A DNA stretch of 64,000 nt, taken from assembly GCA_963744245.1 (NCBI GenBank), contig CAVUST010000002.1, positions 5,891 to 69,890 on the forward strand, written 5' to 3'. A program made the position numbers and the translations under genes. Below the pieces are notes generated by a model, which saw only the letters and a list, made by a program, of their open reading frames with translations, did no database searches and had not been told where the DNA came from. This document shows positions 12,347 to 21,372 of this stretch, one piece after another (positions within the stretch are counted from its first letter, which is position 1; each line of letters starts with the position of its first letter). This DNA is from an uncultured Solirubrobacterales bacterium. Its GTDB lineage: Bacteria; Actinomycetota; Thermoleophilia; Solirubrobacterales; Solirubrobacteraceae.

Positions 12347-13770
12347 GGTCGCGTCCCTTCAGCCGGGGGAATTGAATAGACGGGCGTAGCCTCCGCTTTG
12401 ACCCTGAAGAAGTCGAAGATGGAGGTACGCCCGCATGGAGAAGGTAGTCCCGAGCGAGAGGTTCCGCTCTGAACTGGACGTGATGCTGGCCGGTGTTGGC
12501 GGGGAGGAGGACCCGATCGAGACGGTCGGTCGTCTCGGTGCCCGGCTGATCCTGCAGCAAGCGCTGGAGGACGAGGTCACCGAGTTTCTCGGCCGCCGGC
12601 GCTATGAGCGCGCCGGTGAGACGGTCAGTCACCGCAACGGCTATGAGAAAAGGACGGTCAAGACGACGAGCGGCGCGATGCGCTTGGAGCGCCCGAGGGT
12701 CCGTGACGCGAAGCGGCTCGGGTTCGAGAGCCGGATCCTCGGCAAGGGCGTCGCCCGTACCCACGCTTTGGAGTCGTTGGTGATCAGTGGGTTCCTCAGG
12801 GGCCTGTCGACGAGGGATGTCGAGGCGGCGCTGGAGGAGGTCTTCGAGGAGCCGATCGCCTCACGCTCGACGGTCTCGAGGATCTGTGAGGACACCCGCG
12901 AGCGATACCGGCAGTGGTGCCGCCGGCGCCTGGAGGCACACGACATCGTCTACCTGTTCCTGGATGCGATCTACCTGAAGTTGCGCCCCGACGACACACC
13001 CTCTGAGGGCGTCCTTGTCTGCTGGGGGGTGACGCTCGAGGGGCGGAAGATCCTGCTCGGATTGGCTCTCGGAAGCCGCGAGAGCTATGACGCGTGGCTC
13101 GCGTTCGCGCGCGACATGATCGACCGCGGGCTGCGCTCACCGGCGCTCGTGGTCGCGGACGGGGCACCGGGAATCTGGAAGGCGACCCGCGAGCTCTGGC
13201 CGCACGCGCTGGAGCAGCGTTGCACCGTCCACGCCCTCAGGAACGTCACCTCAAAGCTCCCGGAGCGCCACCACGCCGAGGTCAAGGCGCGCTGGTGGAA
13301 AGCGTTCGATGAGGCCCGCTCCCCGGGCGAGGTGACCCGCGAGCTGCAGGGCATCATCGTCGACTACAAGGCCGCCTACCCATCGGCGATGGCCGTCATC
13401 GAAACGGACCTTCCGGCCCTGGTCTCGCATCTACGGTTCCCGTCCGAGCACCGCAAGCGGATACGGACCACGAATCTCCTCGAGAGAACGTTCGTGGAGG
13501 TCCGCCGGCGCACCAAGGTCATCGGCCGCTTCCCCGGCGAGACCTCAGCGCTGTCTCTGATCTGGGCCGTGCTCGAGCTCTCCACCCGCGGCTGGAGAGG
13601 AGTGAAGATGAACCCCAAGACCGTCGCGGAGATCGAGCGGCTGCGCCGTCAGCTGCGCGAGGACCCAGCCCCACCCGTGACCGTCGACGCCGAGGAGGTG
13701 ATCGCCGCATAGGATCCGCAGCAAGCGGAGCTACGCCCCGGTGATTTCACCCGGGAACTGGGACGCGACC
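12347..13770 (+). mobile_element. IS256-family insertion sequence
   Basis: Terminal IR GGTCGCGTCCC / GGGACGCGACC; 8-bp TSD CGTGTTCG at 12339-12346 and 13771-13778. Confidence 0.93.
12435..13712 (+). CDS. IS256-family (Mutator) transposase
   Basis: YLFLDAIY, LVVADGAPG, QRCTVH and TTNLLER. Confidence 0.95.
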   Translation: MEKVVPSERFRSELDVMLAGVGGEEDPIETVGRLGARLILQQALEDEVTEFLGRRRYERAGETVSHRNGYEKRTVKTTSGAMRLERPRVRDAKRLGFESRILGKGVARTHALESLVISGFLRGLSTRDVEAALEEVFEEPIASRSTVSRICEDTRERYRQWCRRRLEAHDIVYLFLDAIYLKLRPDDTPSEGVLVCWGVTLEGRKILLGLALGSRESYDAWLAFARDMIDRGLRSPALVVADGAPGIWKATRELWPHALEQRCTVHALRNVTSKLPERHHAEVKARWWKAFDEARSPGEVTRELQGIIVDYKAAYPSAMAVIETDLPALVSHLRFPSEHRKRIRTTNLLERTFVEVRRRTKVIGRFPGETSALSLIWAVLELSTRGWRGVKMNPKTVAEIERLRRQLREDPAPPVTVDAEEVIAA

Positions 13771-13878: not shown

Positions 13879-14450
13879 CTAGGTCTGTCCGAGCAACTGC
13901 CGGTAGACGAGGCGAGTCTCGCGGGCGGGCTCAAGGCCTAGCTGCTCGTCAAGGGAGCGGGTGAGTTCGTCGTAGCGGCGGGTGATTGACTCGCGCAGGC
14001 CGAGGGAGTGTTCGGCTTGCAGCGCCAGCCGCCAGCTTGGCTCGTGTAGCTCCTCTAGGGAGATGGCTTGCTCTGCGAGTTGCAGCGCGGCGCGGGCGTC
14101 GCCGTGCGCGAGTCGTGCCCGTCCTACGCGCTCAAGTAGATCGACGAGCGTGGCGTGAAGGTTGCGCCGCTCGCCTTCGGCCCATAGGAAGTCGCTGCCC
14201 TCCAGCGGTTCGCCGCGCCACAGCGCGAGCGCTGTTTCGAGCGCGGCGGGGTCGTCGCCGTCGTCGTTGCCGAGCTGCCCGTCGGTGTTCAGGCCCCAGG
14301 CCATGACTTTCCCGGTTTTCAACAGCGCGAGGCTATGCAGTTCGCCGCCCGCCACCGCGGTCGCTTCTGTCAGCACTTTAACCGCCACCGCTTCTTTCTC
14401 GGTCGTGGTATTGCCGTTGCCGAGCTGACTGTCGTTGTTCAAGCCCAAGC
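13879..14450 (-). pseudogene. Chimeric fragment: RCC1 repeat joined in frame to the C-terminal part of a BTAD domain
   Basis: GGELHSLAL..VMAWGLNTDGQLGN followed by ALETALALWRGEPLEG..EELHEPSWRL..LGLEPARET. Confidence 0.65.
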
Positions 14451-14709
14451 CGCCGCACCGGAAGATTCCGAGGCCGATGCCGGCACCACGCCTGCCAGGA
14501 CGAGCGTGGCGAGCAGAGCCGGCCAGAACAATCTCGTCCACTTGCGAGAGTGATCACGGGTGTGATGCGCCCTCGTCGCCTGTCGTCCCCCAGTCCGGCC
14601 CACTTGCCCCTCCTCGGTTGATTGGTGCCAACCTAACCGTTTCTAGGCAGATGTCAATATCCGGTATCGTCGAAATAAGCCGCAGTTTGCGAATTACCAG
14701 ACTAGTCCG

Positions 14710-15724: not shown

Positions 15725-15957
15725 CGGACACAGTACGTGGGCGCTAGCAACTTGCGGTCCTCGCCGATGAACAGTTCGCGTTCGGCGAGCTTGGCGAGGG
15801 CCAGTGCGACTCCGGGAAAACAGTACCGATTTGGTACCCGCATGATGCACTTGCGCTCCGCTTCCCGAGTCAAAAATCCCTCTGTCGCTTAGAGGTCGGA
15901 TTTGAGAAGCGCCGGTTTGTGTAGCTTTGCACCTGCTTGGCGCCCGGAACCCAGGCT

Positions 15958-16215
15958 CTACCGCGACCGGCCCCTCTTGCCATTCTCATGCCTCTCGGCC
16001 TCGCGCAGCAGCTCTGAGGCTGGGACGCCGAGCCCGTCCGCGAGCGCCCAGAGAGCGCGCACGCTGACATTGCGCTCGCCGCGCTCAGCATCCCCGACGT
16101 AGTTGGTCGTCAGGCCAGAGTGGTCGCCGAGGGCTTCCTGTGTGAGATCGCGCGCCTTGCGCAGCTCGCGCACGGCGTCGCCGAGGGCACGGTGTCTTGG
16201 GCTAAGTGGTGGCAC
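15958..16215 (-). CDS. XRE-family HTH regulator (start uncertain)
   Basis: ALGDAVRELRKARDLTQEALGDHSGLTTNYVGDAERGERNVS. Confidence 0.85.
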   Translation of the reverse strand: MPPLSPRHRALGDAVRELRKARDLTQEALGDHSGLTTNYVGDAERGERNVSVRALWALADGLGVPASELLREAERHENGKRGRSR

Positions 16216-16567
16216 CCCTGCACCCTCTCTGAGTGCCCCCTGTTCGTCCACCAACCATCAGGGTGTTTCAGTGCTACTGTCCACGCGCCCAATGTCACTT
16301 GCGAATGGCGCGCCGAACCCGCACGACGGTATCGGGGCCTCCAGCGCAGATGACCGAGGGCAATGCCCGCAGACAAGTTGGCCCCGGCGCAGGATTGCAG
16401 TCCCGCCCGGGGCCGTGACACAGGAGGTCTTATCTCCCATGCACGAGCAGCGTAGTCCAGAGAGGTCCGAGGATATCGCTCGACTTGATGGGGCGATCCT
16501 CGGGCTTCTCGCCAGCCCTGTCCAGCAGCGTCCTCTCTCATCCGTGGAGGTGGCCCATGAGGAGCGC

Positions 16568-16936
16568 ATGACGGACCCCCTGGAGGTCTCTGTCTCCCTC
16601 CCTCCTCCGAGCGTCTTCTGGCGCACAGGAGGCACCGAGCTGGGAGCGGCGATCAGGTCGCGCCGGCAGGCGCTCCAGCTAAGTATCGAGTTCCTTGCCG
16701 GCAAGGCAGGGATGCACCCAACGTATCTCTCTGGCATCGAGCGCGGCATCAGGAATCCGACCTGGGACAGGATCTCCGACCTGGCGGAAGTCCTCGGCGT
16801 GCCCGTCTCGACCCTGGCCTGTGAGGCTGAGGATCGCCGCATCAAGCAGGCGCTCAATGCCGCAGCCGTCAGCGCCTACCGCGCGGCCTGTGCCCGGCAC
16901 GGCCACGACGAGCACATGACACAGGGGAGCCGGTAG
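16568..16936 (+). CDS. XRE-family HTH regulator (start uncertain)
   Basis: ELGAAIRSRRQALQLSIEFLAGKAGMHPTYLSGIERGIRNPT. Confidence 0.85.
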   Translation: MTDPLEVSVSLPPPSVFWRTGGTELGAAIRSRRQALQLSIEFLAGKAGMHPTYLSGIERGIRNPTWDRISDLAEVLGVPVSTLACEAEDRRIKQALNAAAVSAYRAACARHGHDEHMTQGSR

Positions 16937-16938
16937 CC

Positions 16939-17178
16939 GTGGGCTTCGCCTATCCATCCAAGGAGTTCGGCCAGACCCCGCCGCCGGAGGATGGGAGCAT
17001 CGTCCCGTGCCCCACATGCGTCAAGGGCCAGCGGCGCATCGGACTCATCCACCTCATCGGGTGCCCTGACTGCCTGGGCTCGGGCGTGCAGGGGTATGGC
17101 TTCTCTGCTCTCTCGGTCTTCGAGGACTGGGTGGATGACCCTCCCTCGGATGGCGATGAGGCTGGTGAGGGTGGGTAG
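16939..17178 (+). CDS. Small Zn-ribbon-like protein
   Basis: CPTC...CPDCLGSG; GTG 2 bp after the XRE stop. Confidence 0.4.
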   Translation: MGFAYPSKEFGQTPPPEDGSIVPCPTCVKGQRRIGLIHLIGCPDCLGSGVQGYGFSALSVFEDWVDDPPSDGDEAGEGG

Positions 17179-17312
17179 TGAAGCGACTTCGCCTTACCAG
17201 CCCCATCACTACGTCGTAGGCTGTGTGCTGGGGGTCATCGGCATGTGGGATCGGGACGGCCAACCCACATCAGCGGGCGTCCCTGTCCTGCGGTCCTGGG
17301 CTATGGTGCCGA

Positions 17313-17522
17313 TCACCATGCCGCAGCGAAGCGCCTGAGCCTTGAGACCCATTCCTCCACATTCTCGACATCCCTGCGAAACGAGGCTCTAGCAGCCTCA
17401 CGATCCATGTTCTGGCCCATGTACTCGTCATCATCGCAACGGGCCAAGTTCGCCCGGCAGTCCTCCGCCATGCGCTCGTGCCGCACGATCTCCTCTTCTA
17501 GCTGCTCCTTTGAGCTGAACAT
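17313..17522 (-). CDS. Small charged coiled-coil hypothetical protein
   Basis: 69 aa with an amphipathic helical pattern. Confidence 0.45.
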   Translation of the reverse strand: MFSSKEQLEEEIVRHERMAEDCRANLARCDDDEYMGQNMDREAARASFRRDVENVEEWVSRLRRFAAAW

Positions 17523-17562
17523 GCTTCGACGGTAGTACCGTCACGCTGATGCTGAGGCTTTT

Positions 17563-18036
17563 GTGCCGTTCACTGACTACCTGGGAAGGCAATGGCGAGT
17601 CGCCCGAGTCGCTGACATCCCGTTCCCGACCTCCGTCGGCGGCAACACGACCGGATGCCCACTTGACGACATCTGCAAACGCGCCTACGCCAAGAAGGGC
17701 GAAAATGTCACGAGCAAGGAAGTCATAGCCTCGCTCACGGCCCGGCGATCAGAGGTGAGGGCCTGCTGGCATCACCGCTTCACCCGTGCTGAGCATCTGT
17801 ATGTGGCGGAGCTATCATGCTGGTTCGTTGAGCATGAAGTCGAGCCATATAGTGATAGCTTCGTGCCCGTCGTCAAGAGGGACGGCTTCTCGGTCGAGGT
17901 CCAGCACGCCGTCCAAGAGCTCTTTGAGTACCCTCTCCGCTGGTCATTCATCAAGGGCGGAGCCCTCCGCAACGGTCGCCACAAGCTATGCGCTCTGAAG
18001 GCGAACAGAATACCCCGCGTCGCCGTCAGGATATGA
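17563..18036 (+). CDS. Hypothetical protein with a weak ParB/Srx-like C-terminal motif
   Basis: LRNGRHKLCALKANRIPRVAV resembles DGxHRxxA...VPV. Confidence 0.5.
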   Translation: MPFTDYLGRQWRVARVADIPFPTSVGGNTTGCPLDDICKRAYAKKGENVTSKEVIASLTARRSEVRACWHHRFTRAEHLYVAELSCWFVEHEVEPYSDSFVPVVKRDGFSVEVQHAVQELFEYPLRWSFIKGGALRNGRHKLCALKANRIPRVAVRI

Positions 18037-18060
18037 GGTGAGAGGGGAAGCGTGAAGGCG

Positions 18061-19260
18061 TTACTCAGTTGTCTGGCTGAGTTTCTGCTGGAGCGACCTC
18101 ACGTAGTATTTGAATAGTGGCTCGTTAAACTTGTACAACCCGCGCGATACGGAAACCACAATGCCGAGCTTCTTCAGCGTTGTGATAAACGATGTGAGCG
18201 TTGCGCTTGGAAACGGCAGCTTCTCCTCAATAAACCTCAGAGGTACGTTTTCCTCTGGATACTCACTCATCGCAATCGCGATACTTCTCTTTGTGCCTTC
18301 GCCCGTGAGATCCCATAGTTTCTCCAGGTAGTCGCGCTGGTCCGCGATGACCACGTTGATACCCGCAATGAGGGATTCCTCGTTGATCTTGGCTTCCTCT
18401 GTCGCGTCAAAGGCAGCAGAGCCCAGCAGGTGGATCTGGTTCGGAATACCTCTCGCCAGCCTCGCGATTTCCGCAGCAACGGTGGCTTCAATGCTCACAT
18501 GACTATCGTTGAGAGCGCGATCTATCACGCCGAGCGATTCCATGCTGTCCAAAGGCATGAGCTTGATTTTCTTGAAGATCCGCGGCACGGATTGATGGCC
18601 CTGCTTTAGCGTCTCCTCAACCGTACTGATGCCCACTGGCAGCAAGATAACGCTCTCCAGTTCCCTCTTAGTCATCATTTCTGTCACCGTCTTGAAGAAG
18701 GTCGGTACGCCGTAATTGCTCGCAATTCTGTCTAGCTCATCGATCACGAGCAGAATGCCATCAAAATGGTCCGACAGCTTGTCCCATGCCTCACAGAGCT
18801 GGTCAATAAAAGAGGCAACTAGATCCTGAGGTGGCCTGGCAGCGTCGTCCAATTCGAATTTCAGCAACTTGAGATCAATCGTCGTCTTGACCTTTAGCGA
18901 AGCCGCCTTCTTTTGCTGTGCTCTATCCAACTCGTCCAGAAGGCCATTTACGATATCGATGATGCTGTGCCCGTCCTGCGCCGTATATTCCGCGACGACG
19001 AAGTTAAAGTGAAGTCCCTCGTATTCATGCGGCAGCAGACTCAAGTAACTCGTCTCACCCCGAGCTATCCCTTGCAGCTGGCTAGACAGAGAACTCTTGC
19101 CTACGCCGCTATCTCCGGTTATAAGGCCATGACGCACATTACCGTGGGCCGCCTGATGCAATAGCCGAGCACCCTCTTCAAGCTGTGCTCGCCTGCCCGA
19201 GAATAGCTCGGGATTACGAAGAATCTTTCCTGGTGAGAACGGGTTGGGACGAAGGGCCAT
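18061..19260 (-). CDS. STAND/AAA ATPase with C-terminal winged helix, no effector domain seen
   Basis: NPF.PG..FSGR N-terminus, Walker A GDSGVGKS, Walker B LLVIDELD; lower GC than flanks. Confidence 0.88.
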   Translation of the reverse strand: MALRPNPFSPGKILRNPELFSGRRAQLEEGARLLHQAAHGNVRHGLITGDSGVGKSSLSSQLQGIARGETSYLSLLPHEYEGLHFNFVVAEYTAQDGHSIIDIVNGLLDELDRAQQKKAASLKVKTTIDLKLLKFELDDAARPPQDLVASFIDQLCEAWDKLSDHFDGILLVIDELDRIASNYGVPTFFKTVTEMMTKRELESVILLPVGISTVEETLKQGHQSVPRIFKKIKLMPLDSMESLGVIDRALNDSHVSIEATVAAEIARLARGIPNQIHLLGSAAFDATEEAKINEESLIAGINVVIADQRDYLEKLWDLTGEGTKRSIAIAMSEYPEENVPLRFIEEKLPFPSATLTSFITTLKKLGIVVSVSRGLYKFNEPLFKYYVRSLQQKLSQTTE

Positions 19261-19311
19261 TAGACTATCTCGACTATAGAGCGGCAAATCCGAGCACGCG
19301 GGAATAACCCC

Positions 19312-19604
19312 TTCACGACTTTTGGCGATGCGCTCTCTGACAGGGGAGAGATCGCGTTTGCGACTCCAGGCGGCCCTTGAGTTAGCGGTCTGAGACGTTG
19401 TTCACGACTTTCGGCGATTCGACACAGATCTTCGAAATCGCCCTGTTGACGGGGGTTTTGCGGAGACGCCGCGCTATGGGCAAACCGTGGGCAAGGAGTT
19501 TACGACTTTTGGCGACACATCACGAGCCGAGCCGGCGAGTGCTTTACGACTTCCGGCGACACATCACGAGCGGTTGCGGATGGGCACTTTACGACTTTTG
19601 GCGA
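19312..19604. repeat. Five direct 17-bp repeats TTYACGACTTYYGGCGA
   Basis: Copies at 19312, 19401, 19499, 19543 and 19588. Confidence 0.9.
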
Positions 19605-19729
19605 CGCGTTGGAAGTGGCTCATAAATGTGGAACATGGGTGGCCCCAACGGCTGGGGTGAGGGACAGGATCACTAGCATGCCGTCATCTCTCAACTCGGC
19701 AGAGCACACTATAAGAATGGTGATTGCCA

Positions 19730-21034
19730 CTACGGCCTGAGTGACGGCATTCCTTCGGGGTCCGTCACACCACGCCTCTGCGCCAGCGGATGACCATGAT
19801 TGACGAGAAGCCACTCGCGGATTCGCTCGGCGTACTCGCGCTCGTCAGAGAGGTCGTTTAGGTGAAGGGCCATCAGGAGGAGTGCTCTGTCCAAGCGACC
19901 CTTGTTGGTGAATCGCCCTGCCCGGTAGCTGATCCTCGTGCGCAGCCAGTTGAGGTTCTGCTCCAAGGCGCCGGTCGCCCACGGGTTGGCCGGGTTGGGC
20001 CACGATGACCGCCGTTCGAGCTGTGGCGTCACGACCCGCTCTACCCCGCTCAGGTAGCTGGCGAGCTTCTTGCGCTGAGTGGGGTTCTGAATTGCCAGCC
20101 ATGCCCCCTTCATCTCATCGAAGCGCTTGACGGACGTGAAGGCCCTCTCGATCAGGTCGTAGGCTGGCGTCTCCGGTTGATCGAGCCCCAAGCCCTTCAG
20201 CTTCTCGTGACACCGCTTCTTCAAGTGGTGCTCGCAGTAATGCACCTCACTCTCGGGATAGACCTCGCCGACGGCTTTGACGAGCGATTTGCCCCGGTCA
20301 CAGACGATGCGCTCGGGTGTCCCCGTGAGCGAGCGCATGAAGCGCCCCCACGCTGGCGTCATGTCGCGCCGCTCGGGCACGGCTTCGAGGCGGAAGACGC
20401 GGATGACCCTGCGCTCGGCGTCCCAGCCCATGGCCGCCAGGATGCTGAAGGTGTGGCGTCCGCCGGGGACGCCCGTGTTGATGCGGAAGGGGACTTCATC
20501 GAAGAGGACGGAGCCCGACTCAGGCCAGGCGAAGTCGCGGTGGGGCTCATAGACGACAGGGCCGAAGACCTCGACCCAATCTGAGATGAGCTGCGCGTGG
20601 TGGGAGTAGCGCACTTCGTGCTTGTTGGCCTGTCTGCCACGTCTTGCGTGCTGGCGGGCGGCATGGGCGGCTTCCCGGTACGTGGCCCCTTCGCCGACGC
20701 GGATGAGGGCGCGGGCGATCTCGCGGATGGAGTAGAGGTGGTCACGCGCTCCCTGTGGCCCCTCTTGGGGCGAGTACATGCGCTCGCACTCATCGCAGAA
20801 GCCATCGTGGGTCATCTGCCTCGGCAGGACCTCGGAGAACTGGTGCGCCTTGTCCCCGTTCCCCGGCACGCACAGCCAGCGCGGCCTCTCGTGGCCCTCC
20901 GTGCCCTTCATCCCGTTCAGCCAGACCCGGCTGCCCTCATGTTCTGAACGTGGGCACTTCGGGCGCTGCGTCTCCTTCATCACGGCAGCCATGACGGACC
21001 TCCTTGTCCGAGTCTCGGCCTTCCAAGGGCTCAT
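19730..21034 (-). CDS. Mutator/MULE-like DDE transposase with N-terminal Zn-binding and HTH regions
   Basis: SVLFDE, IVCDRGKSLVKAVGEVYPESEVHYCEHH (D...C/DxxH) and GALEQ. Confidence 0.8.
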   Translation of the reverse strand: MSPWKAETRTRRSVMAAVMKETQRPKCPRSEHEGSRVWLNGMKGTEGHERPRWLCVPGNGDKAHQFSEVLPRQMTHDGFCDECERMYSPQEGPQGARDHLYSIREIARALIRVGEGATYREAAHAARQHARRGRQANKHEVRYSHHAQLISDWVEVFGPVVYEPHRDFAWPESGSVLFDEVPFRINTGVPGGRHTFSILAAMGWDAERRVIRVFRLEAVPERRDMTPAWGRFMRSLTGTPERIVCDRGKSLVKAVGEVYPESEVHYCEHHLKKRCHEKLKGLGLDQPETPAYDLIERAFTSVKRFDEMKGAWLAIQNPTQRKKLASYLSGVERVVTPQLERRSSWPNPANPWATGALEQNLNWLRTRISYRAGRFTNKGRLDRALLLMALHLNDLSDEREYAERIREWLLVNHGHPLAQRRGVTDPEGMPSLRP

Positions 21035-21130
21035 CTTGAGCTTAGGTCATGCTAGAGAGGGGCATGGACGCCAAATCCGACCTCTAAGCGACAGAGGCAA
21101 AAATCGCTAATTTGCAGGTATTTCCTCTGA

Positions 21131-21204
21131 TCGGGGAGACAGGATTTGAACCTGCGACCGCCCGGCCCCCAGCCGGGTGCGCTACCAGACTGCGCCACTC
21201 CCCG
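21131..21204 (-). tRNA. tRNA-Pro(GGG)
   Basis: CGGGGAG/CTCCCCG acceptor stem, CCCGG-CTGGGGG-CCGGG anticodon arm, GGTTCAAATCC T-loop. Confidence 0.95.
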
Positions 21205-21215
21205 TGGCACTGCAA

Positions 21216-21286
21216 AGCGGGCGACGGGAATTGAACCCGCCCTTAAAGCTTGGAAGGCTTTCGTGCAACCACAACACTTCGCCCGC
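21216..21286 (-). tRNA. tRNA-Gly(TCC)
   Basis: GCGGGCG/CGCCCGC acceptor stem, AAAGC-CTTCCAA-GCTTT anticodon arm, GGTTCAATTCC T-loop. Confidence 0.93.
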
Positions 21287-21372
21287 AAGCCGACCTCATG
21301 CTACCGCCTCGCGAACTCCTCGTGCTCGACCCGCCTCTCTGACAATCCGCGTCGTCCAGCTCGGCCATCTCC

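Follow-up and report, generated by a model that had tools for sequence, protein, structure and literature searches.

A phased array of direct 17-bp repeats beside a Cdc6/Orc1-like ATPase gene in the cargo of a Mutator/IS256-like transposon

Results

We analysed a stretch of 64,000 nucleotides (the window) from an uncultured Solirubrobacterales bacterium (assembly GCA_963744245.1, contig CAVUST010000002.1, positions 5,891 to 69,890 of the forward strand), in which a phased array of short direct repeats (19267..19632, assigned to the - strand, on which the flanking genes run) is contained in a Mutator/IS256-like transposon of 5,219 bp. The transposon is bounded by 26-bp terminal inverted repeats that are 100% complementary (15879..15904, +, at the low-coordinate end and 21072..21097, -, at the high-coordinate end) and, as read from the sequence, by an 8-bp target-site duplication (CAAAAATC, without strand, 15871..15878 with the second copy at 21098-21105). 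It is inserted 26 bp from the 3' end of a tRNA-Pro gene and is single-copy in the genome. The genes on either side of the array are both on the - strand, and the first-pass annotation of this DNA, made from the letters alone, correctly placed the array between the 3' end of a transposase gene (19730..21034, -, 434 aa) and the start of an ATPase gene (18061..19287, -), which encodes an AAA+ ATPase that is Cdc6/Orc1-like and carries a winged helix at its C-terminal end.

The core of the array is the 17-bp sequence TTYACGACTTYYGGCGA. All five copies previously reported, at 19312..19328 (TTCACGACTTTTGGCGA, the intact core closest to the ATPase start), 19401..19417 (TTCACGACTTTCGGCGA), 19499..19515, 19543..19559 and 19588..19604, are present on the + strand with 0 mismatches each, and the spacings of 89, 98, 44 and 45 bp between them were reproduced by a repeat finder. 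Copies 3 and 4 do match over a greater length, the same 12-bp extension (CACATCACGAGC) following each core. The array is real and strongly non-random: when up to 3 mismatches to TTYACGACTTYYGGCGA are tolerated the window contains no site beyond the five, and 100 dinucleotide shuffles have a mean of 0.80 sites and at most 4, none of the 100 reaching five. Across the 3.09-Mb genome the exact sequence occurs at these five sites only, and the 2 sites found with two mismatches lie on the other contig, against 1 for a control pattern. The core had also been described as an imperfect dyad, CGAC-N4-GGCG; a dyad can be read there, but it is weak, with 3/4 positions complementary.

The spacings close to multiples of 44.5 bp, to which attention had been drawn, are accounted for by seven or eight head-to-tail units of 44-45 bp, one of them of 53 bp. 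Tandem Repeats Finder (TRF) reports a period of 44 at 19499-19605 (2.4 copies, 79% matches), and consensus scoring identifies a decayed sixth core in phase with the others (19357..19373, +, TTTGCGACTCCAGGCGG, 13/17), 45 bp past copy 1 and 44 bp ahead of copy 2. At a consensus score of at least 13, both strands of the window together hold 11 sites, 6 of them inside the array and 5 elsewhere. The region was then cut into 44-45-bp units and aligned, whereby two more units come into register with small indels, an uncertain candidate core with a 2-bp insertion (19446..19464, +, TTGACGGGGGTTTTGCGGA) and an equally uncertain candidate unit with a 1-bp insertion (19267..19284, +); both are possible further decayed copies. 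The latter contains TATAGT on the - strand (19278-19273), a -10-like hexamer 13 nt before the ATG at 19260. On this evidence the spacings are what remains of a head-to-tail repeat that had a 44-45 bp period and has since decayed.

Conservation within these units is confined to the core. When the five good units are compared in pairs, mean identity reaches 0.91 over the 17-bp core versus 0.31 in the next 27 bp, and the only pair that shares more is formed by units 5 and 6, which agree at 32/44 positions (15 core, 17 tail). Across 6 units the 44-45 bp phase persists, although the spacers are at near-random identity. This retention of core and phase between diverged spacers is evidence that selection acts on a short binding site whose spacing is fixed, and the array as aligned appears to be under core-specific constraint.

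The open reading frame (ORF) of the adjoining ATPase encodes 408 aa from a TTG at 19287, with AAA_16 (Pfam, 2.6e-12) and AAA_22 domains, but alignment with six relatives makes the ATG at 19260 the more likely start, which would place the closest intact core 52 bp upstream. An AlphaFold (AF2) model of the protein (pLDDT 83.9, pTM 0.78) has a C-terminal helix-helix-hairpin winged helix. In Foldseek the top match is the archaeal Walker ATPase PABY2304, with DNA-bound Orc1/Cdc6 after it, and the best VIA-align matches, again DNA-bound Orc1/Cdc6, are 2qby_A (Z 22.4 over 335 residues) and 2v1u_A (Z 22.2), the alignment covering model residues 9-404, followed by 1w5t_A (Z 22.1), 1fnn_A (Z 20.9) and the archaeal AAA+ plus winged-helix ATPases 2qen (Z 20.0) and 2fna (Z 18.6). 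The transposition ATPases TnsC (7mbw, Z 17.3, root-mean-square deviation 3.3 over 263 residues) and MuB (8xvb, Z 15.2) match in the AAA+ core only. The predicted fold is thus of Orc1/Cdc6 type, a statement about structure and not about family membership at the sequence level, where the match to the Orc1/Cdc6 model TIGR02928, at 19.4 bits, falls far below the cut-off of 181.3. The wider family is very large: a profile search gathered 10,178 representatives at E <=0.001, of which 669 reach E <=1e-30; relatives are labelled 'Cdc6-like AAA superfamily ATPase' in some sources, and the protein matches phrog_6841 (3.8e-21). The closest protein relatives (P0033 and others) are at 46% identity and below, PADLOC returned only weak SspC P-loop matches, and no relatives were confirmed in IMG/VR.

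The array could have belonged either to the transposition machinery or to its cargo, and the evidence points to the cargo. The transposase is assigned to the IS256/Mutator-like class of DDE enzymes by its conserved D, D and CxxH columns (D179, D246 and C267-x2-H270 among 31 protein homologs), together with the perfect inverted repeats and 8-bp duplication of the element, its direct matches to the Mutator-like element (MULE; 20.8 bits) and IS256 models both being weak and below cut-offs. Of the 47 relatives' loci examined in this respect, 28 are simple insertion sequences (IS) with inverted repeats 1.34-1.49 kb apart, and their transposases are 35-40% identical, that is, distant relatives; seven closer relatives (49-78% identity) are cargo transposons of 3.4-4.8 kb, likewise bounded by such inverted repeats. 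At the DNA level, homology with the closest relatives (L011, L012 and L093) ends exactly at the transposase stop codon (window 19728-19731). From such comparisons it seems that elements of this clade have a slot directly after that stop codon in which the cargo can be exchanged.

The first-pass annotation had proposed to look for the same array downstream of homologous transposases, and held that its reading would fall if the array were absent there and no protein of the element bound it. The former is what we find, as the motif is absent in forward orientation from all 149 loci of transposase relatives, in which the sole match is one reverse-strand site with 2 mismatches (L106). The 1 kb downstream of the transposase in the 10 closest loci contains no array and no repeat family of more than two copies, nor is there a clustered array anywhere in the 7 related transposons that are bounded by inverted repeats. 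Instead the array belongs to a low-GC cargo block, orf96-orf157-ATPase-array: in a 200-bp GC profile the segment from about 17400 to 19800, which holds orf157, the ATPase gene and the array, is at 0.48-0.59, while the transposase part (0.63-0.70) and the part encoding an XRE-type regulator (0.64-0.71) are richer. The ATPase and orf157 have 0 homologs in 150 loci of transposase relatives. Adjacency, common composition and the fact that both are private to this element indicate that the array travels with the ATPase, and on these comparisons the array is best regarded as cargo, outside the transposition machinery. With regard to variation in copy number between strains, four soil DNA runs gave only short contigs identical to the element, none of which spans the array and no joint of which bears on it.

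Discussion

We consider it rather probable that the array has some specific protein-binding role. The first-pass annotation had read it as an iteron-like or protein-loading array, and in its generic form that reading fits the equal orientation and spacing of the sites and the core-only conservation, although the specific versions it offered fare badly, as set out below. The single orientation of the cores, and a motif that occurs nowhere else in the window or genome, point to a locally encoded factor and not to a host regulon. Our tentative explanation, to which we give a little less than an even chance, is that the array consists of phased docking sites lying in the promoter region of the ATPase gene, where they would serve to autoregulate that gene or to load the ATPase, the protein most likely to bind them. 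The five intact and one to three decayed sites, equally oriented, would dock a sequence-specific DNA-binding protein, the candidate being the product of the gene immediately downstream, the Cdc6/Orc1-like AAA+ protein with its C-terminal winged helix. ATP-bound protomers would fill the cores head to tail, forming an oligomer that extends for about 300 bp and takes in the promoter region of the ATPase gene, which would lead to autoregulation of that gene and perhaps also block read-through from the transposase gene. What the data show is the array and how it is phased, selection confined to the core, where the array lies, that the loci of transposase relatives are without it, and the predicted fold of the ATPase; the binding, the binder and the transcriptional effect are all things we infer.

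Several observations weigh against binding by the ATPase. Comparative support is missing, as no second instance of the array was found and it stands as a single case. Distant ATPase homologs were examined at 14 loci drawn from 400 genomes of the order (identity 22-33%) and at 27 drawn from 400 genomes of the phylum (two G082 loci being left out); 0/41 have a comparable long-core array, and the same is true of the 5 plasmid or phage loci with distant ATPase homologs (0/5); the locus with the closest ATPase homolog among the genome loci (L297, E 6e-90) also has no array. Short phased repeats do precede the gene in two lineages. In L316 the heptamer TGCAAAA occurs six times with a 9-10 bp period right before the ATPase homolog, which 0/200 shuffles exceed, and in L307 and L308 (two genomes of one genus) a TATACT hexamer is directly preceded by four AAATCAA-like repeats, which recur every 10-11 bp or so and are situated some 100 bp ahead of the ATG of the homolog. 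They are only a weak hint of a link between ATPase and array, because the motif and the period (9-11 bp) both differ from those seen here. The settings of other distant homologs, beside a type II restriction-modification pair on an Acinetobacter plasmid (L160), between the Tum and portal genes in a variable region of a Salmonella P2-like plasmid (L161) and in mid-genome in Gordonia phage Cashline as gene 34 (L178), are defence-like or accessory and suggest another role for the family. A scan of 18900-19900 for sigma-70 promoters and intrinsic terminators gave 0 sites. Finally, the winged helix of STAND (signal transduction ATPases with numerous domains) and AAA+ proteins is not always DNA-binding.

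Among the other explanations, an operator for a different protein of the element, whether the XRE regulator or the product of orf79, orf96 or orf157, is rather unlikely. A dimer on the weak dyad TCGCC-N4-GTCGT would here repress or activate the ATPase gene. The element does encode a Cro/CI-type helix-turn-helix (HTH) protein (16103..16936, +; HTH_3 1.3e-12, with PADLOC control-protein and HTH matches), and the length of 17 bp, the imperfect dyad and half-site centres that can be read as about 9 bp apart would suit an HTH dimer. However, the dyad is poor and every site points one way, neither the XRE gene nor the transposase promoter has the motif nearby, even when 3 mismatches are tolerated, the XRE gene is in the high-GC part of the element, and the loci of its relatives (L016, L130 and L012) have no such array. 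A real, conserved gene of the same low-GC block is orf157, but its product has neither a DNA-binding family nor a fold match in the PDB. That the array is instead a neutral intergenic minisatellite of the variable-number tandem repeat (VNTR) type, produced by slippage or unequal crossing-over and without function, is unlikely. It would account for the head-to-tail 44-45 bp period detected by TRF, for the resemblance of units 5 and 6 to a recent duplication, and for the lack of any homolog and of a detected promoter, terminator or RNA signal. Neutral decay should nevertheless strike core and spacer alike, which the identities of 0.91 and 0.31 contradict; the phase is kept without indels over most units, and recombinational homogenisation acts on whole units, not on 17 bp.

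The other specific functions proposed in the first-pass annotation are less probable still. A replicating circular stage of the element, with the array as an iteron- or origin recognition box (ORB)-like origin and the ATPase as initiator or loader on the excised circle, we regard as very improbable. It draws on the predicted Orc1/Cdc6-type fold, on repeats adjoining the gene as in the archaeal origins described in PMC3528665, and on a distant homolog in an archaeal virus that is annotated as a putative Orc1/Cdc6 initiator. Against it, neither an AT-rich unwinding stretch nor a DnaA box is found near the array: the lowest GC of any 40-bp segment is 0.475 within the array (19267-19632) and 0.425 in a scan of 19200-19800, where it falls inside the ATPase gene, and no DnaA box (TTGTCCACA-like) lies within 13 kb, the 3 matches elsewhere in the window being a number that 92/100 shuffles reach. 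The array repeats are moreover all direct, whereas ORB boxes are inverted around an unwinding element (PMC3528665); the TIGR02928 score is far below its cut-off; no Rep initiator family (Pfam, NCBIfam, PHROGs) and no helicase or primase family was found among the ORFs of the element; and the element is single-copy with a clean target duplication. A ParB-like binder, likewise suggested, finds no partner, as no ParA or ParB family was found in the reading frames of the element.

A repetitive non-coding RNA, acting as a protein sponge or as a guide-type array, resembles the locus in form, with a constant period, conserved repeats and unrelated spacers. We think it highly improbable: the repeat is short (17-19 nt) and without a stable hairpin, folding on both strands is no better than that of shuffles (z 0.68 for the - and -0.33 for the + strand), no Rfam family is found in 15800-21300, the only Rfam matches obtained being the two tRNAs and two weak chance matches, and no Cas-like or other RNA-guided protein family was found among the reading frames of the element. 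Nor does the region have a match in mobile-element collections, blastn of 19288-19729 against plasmids (72,556 records) and phages giving nothing at E up to 1. A motif search of IMG/VR returned 116 stretches, a count that we estimate to be about chance level; each of the 80 listed has a single site, and there is no array among those 80 of the 116. Least probable of all is that the cores are internal transposase sites, serving as an enhancer, as vestigial ends of a short IS or in the manner of MuA/MuB or TnsB/TnsC together with the ATPase. Equally oriented sites beside a transposase and AAA+ pair do recall the ends of Mu and Tn7, and the AAA+ core does match TnsC and MuB. The cores are, however, unlike the element ends, local alignments being no better than those of shuffles (42-84% of which score equally), the nearest element end is about 1.5 kb away, the motif and the array are absent from the relatives as described above, and those relatives transpose without such an ATPase. 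These results speak against the transposase as the binder. As to the suggested ancestral shorter IS form of the element, short forms do exist in the family, but there is no vestigial inverted repeat in 19288-19790.

The array can be compared with several known systems. Plasmid iterons are equally oriented direct repeats that lie beside the gene of a presumed binder and may have an autoregulatory role. The array has in common with them direct repeats of the 17-22 bp class on one strand, here five exact cores and one decayed core, but its period is 44-45 bp and not about 22, and no Rep family, DnaA box or AT-rich region was found. In sopC of the F plasmid, 43-bp units that each contain a core bound by SopB are repeated in tandem. 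The array resembles it in the unit length, about 43-45 bp, and in the short conserved core, whereas no ParA or ParB genes were found in the element, the adjoining ATPase is of AAA+ and not ParA-type Walker kind, and the units are unconserved outside the core. The subterminal sites of Mu and Tn7 are likewise equally oriented sites of about 20 bp near a transposase and AAA+ pair, but the array is internal, unrelated to the inverted repeats and absent from relatives. Actinobacterial MIRU (mycobacterial interspersed repetitive unit)/VNTR minisatellites are head-to-tail units of 40-100 bp between genes of the same orientation, from which the array differs in that only 17-19 bp of each unit are conserved. 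Arrays of the CRISPR (clustered regularly interspaced short palindromic repeats) kind have repeats of at least 23 nt, a stable fold and effector genes, unlike the core of 17-19 nt, with no excess folding and no effector family, found here.

The proposed arrangement resembles that of archaeal Orc1/Cdc6 on ORB boxes beside its own gene, with several boxes in an intergenic region adjoining a gene for an AAA+ plus winged-helix protein. In haloarchaea, according to PMC3528665, ORB repeats adjoin orc/cdc6 genes and are specific to the neighbouring protein, so that the ORB box is private to the adjacent protein much as the array box is private to this element, and an Orc1 paralog is reported to be a transcription regulator (PMC9738581). 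The array departs from this pattern in its bacterial host, its transposon setting and its regular 44-45 bp period, in boxes that are all direct and without an AT-rich element, and in an ATPase that does not reach the Orc1/Cdc6 sequence model. A more novel reading, which we regard as very improbable, is that a Mutator-like transposon here carries a self-contained Orc1/Cdc6-type module, consisting of the AAA+ plus winged-helix protein and its own phased boxes. ATP-dependent assembly of the ATPase on the array would then either replicate or maintain an excised circle or form a cis-anchored DNA-sensing switch, for example a defence or addiction module on the transposon.

If the array is neutral the finding is an ordinary one. 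Should the ATPase bind it, on the other hand, the array would provide a defined DNA ligand for the Cdc6-like ATPases of bacteria and phages, a family that is very large and unstudied and has members in phages, plasmids and defence-like islands, and five near-identical sites at fixed spacing would be an ideal substrate for footprinting and for cryo-electron microscopy of an AAA+ oligomer on DNA. Were the self-contained module real, the bacterial Cdc6-like ATPase family would have its first described ORB-like recognition array.

Other features of the element

The remaining genes of the transposon lie on the low-coordinate side of the ATPase. In the low-GC block, orf157 (17563..18036, +) is a conserved cargo gene whose product is of unknown fold; it is convergent with the ATPase gene. 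The product shares 59-87% identity with 10 homologs; some Cys and His columns are invariant, and there is a motif, NGRHRLCALKA. No fold in the PDB matches the model made of it (pLDDT 76.5), and no DNA-binding family is recognised in it. We considered whether it might be ParB-like, given the NGRHRLCA motif and an Atlas row in which ParB_N is found on 23% of members, and rejected this as it has neither a Pfam match nor a PDB fold match. The gene orf79 (16939..17178, +) is a backbone gene that this element has in common with the related transposons L094 and L095 (tblastn, 70-75% amino-acid identity), its region matching also at the DNA level (16950-17137). In the XRE/Cro-CI-type regulator, which has relatives in L130, L016 and L012, the HTH is at residues 179-246 of an ORF of 277 aa, for which reason the true gene is probably shorter than the ORF.

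Some observations concern the loci used for comparison. At L297 (1008-1159) the ATPase homolog is directly downstream of two tRNA-like genes, an island-like arrangement, and at L316 (1020-1135) the GTG start of the homolog is separated from a terminator-like hairpin by about 8 TGCAAAAG repeats with a 9-10 bp period. At L177 (2810-2877) a 23-bp tandem repeat (2.9 copies, 93% matches) is found between the 3' ends of the ATPase homolog and a convergent gene; being downstream of the homolog, it was rejected as an upstream array, and repeats at L164, L170 and L173 were set aside as they appear to be coding or GC-rich noise. The cargo behind the transposase varies from relative to relative, comprising an LRAT-like protein, an M78 peptidase or unknown ORFs, and several genomes carry many copies of the simple-IS relatives (L098-L143 and others).

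Outside the transposon, 2 kb away, the window contains a second transposase, of the classical IS256 family (12435-13712, +; Transposase_mut, 7.8e-78). Beside it an ORF of 220 aa (13879-14541, -) combines RCC1 repeats with a BTAD domain, possibly as the remnant of a larger regulator gene.

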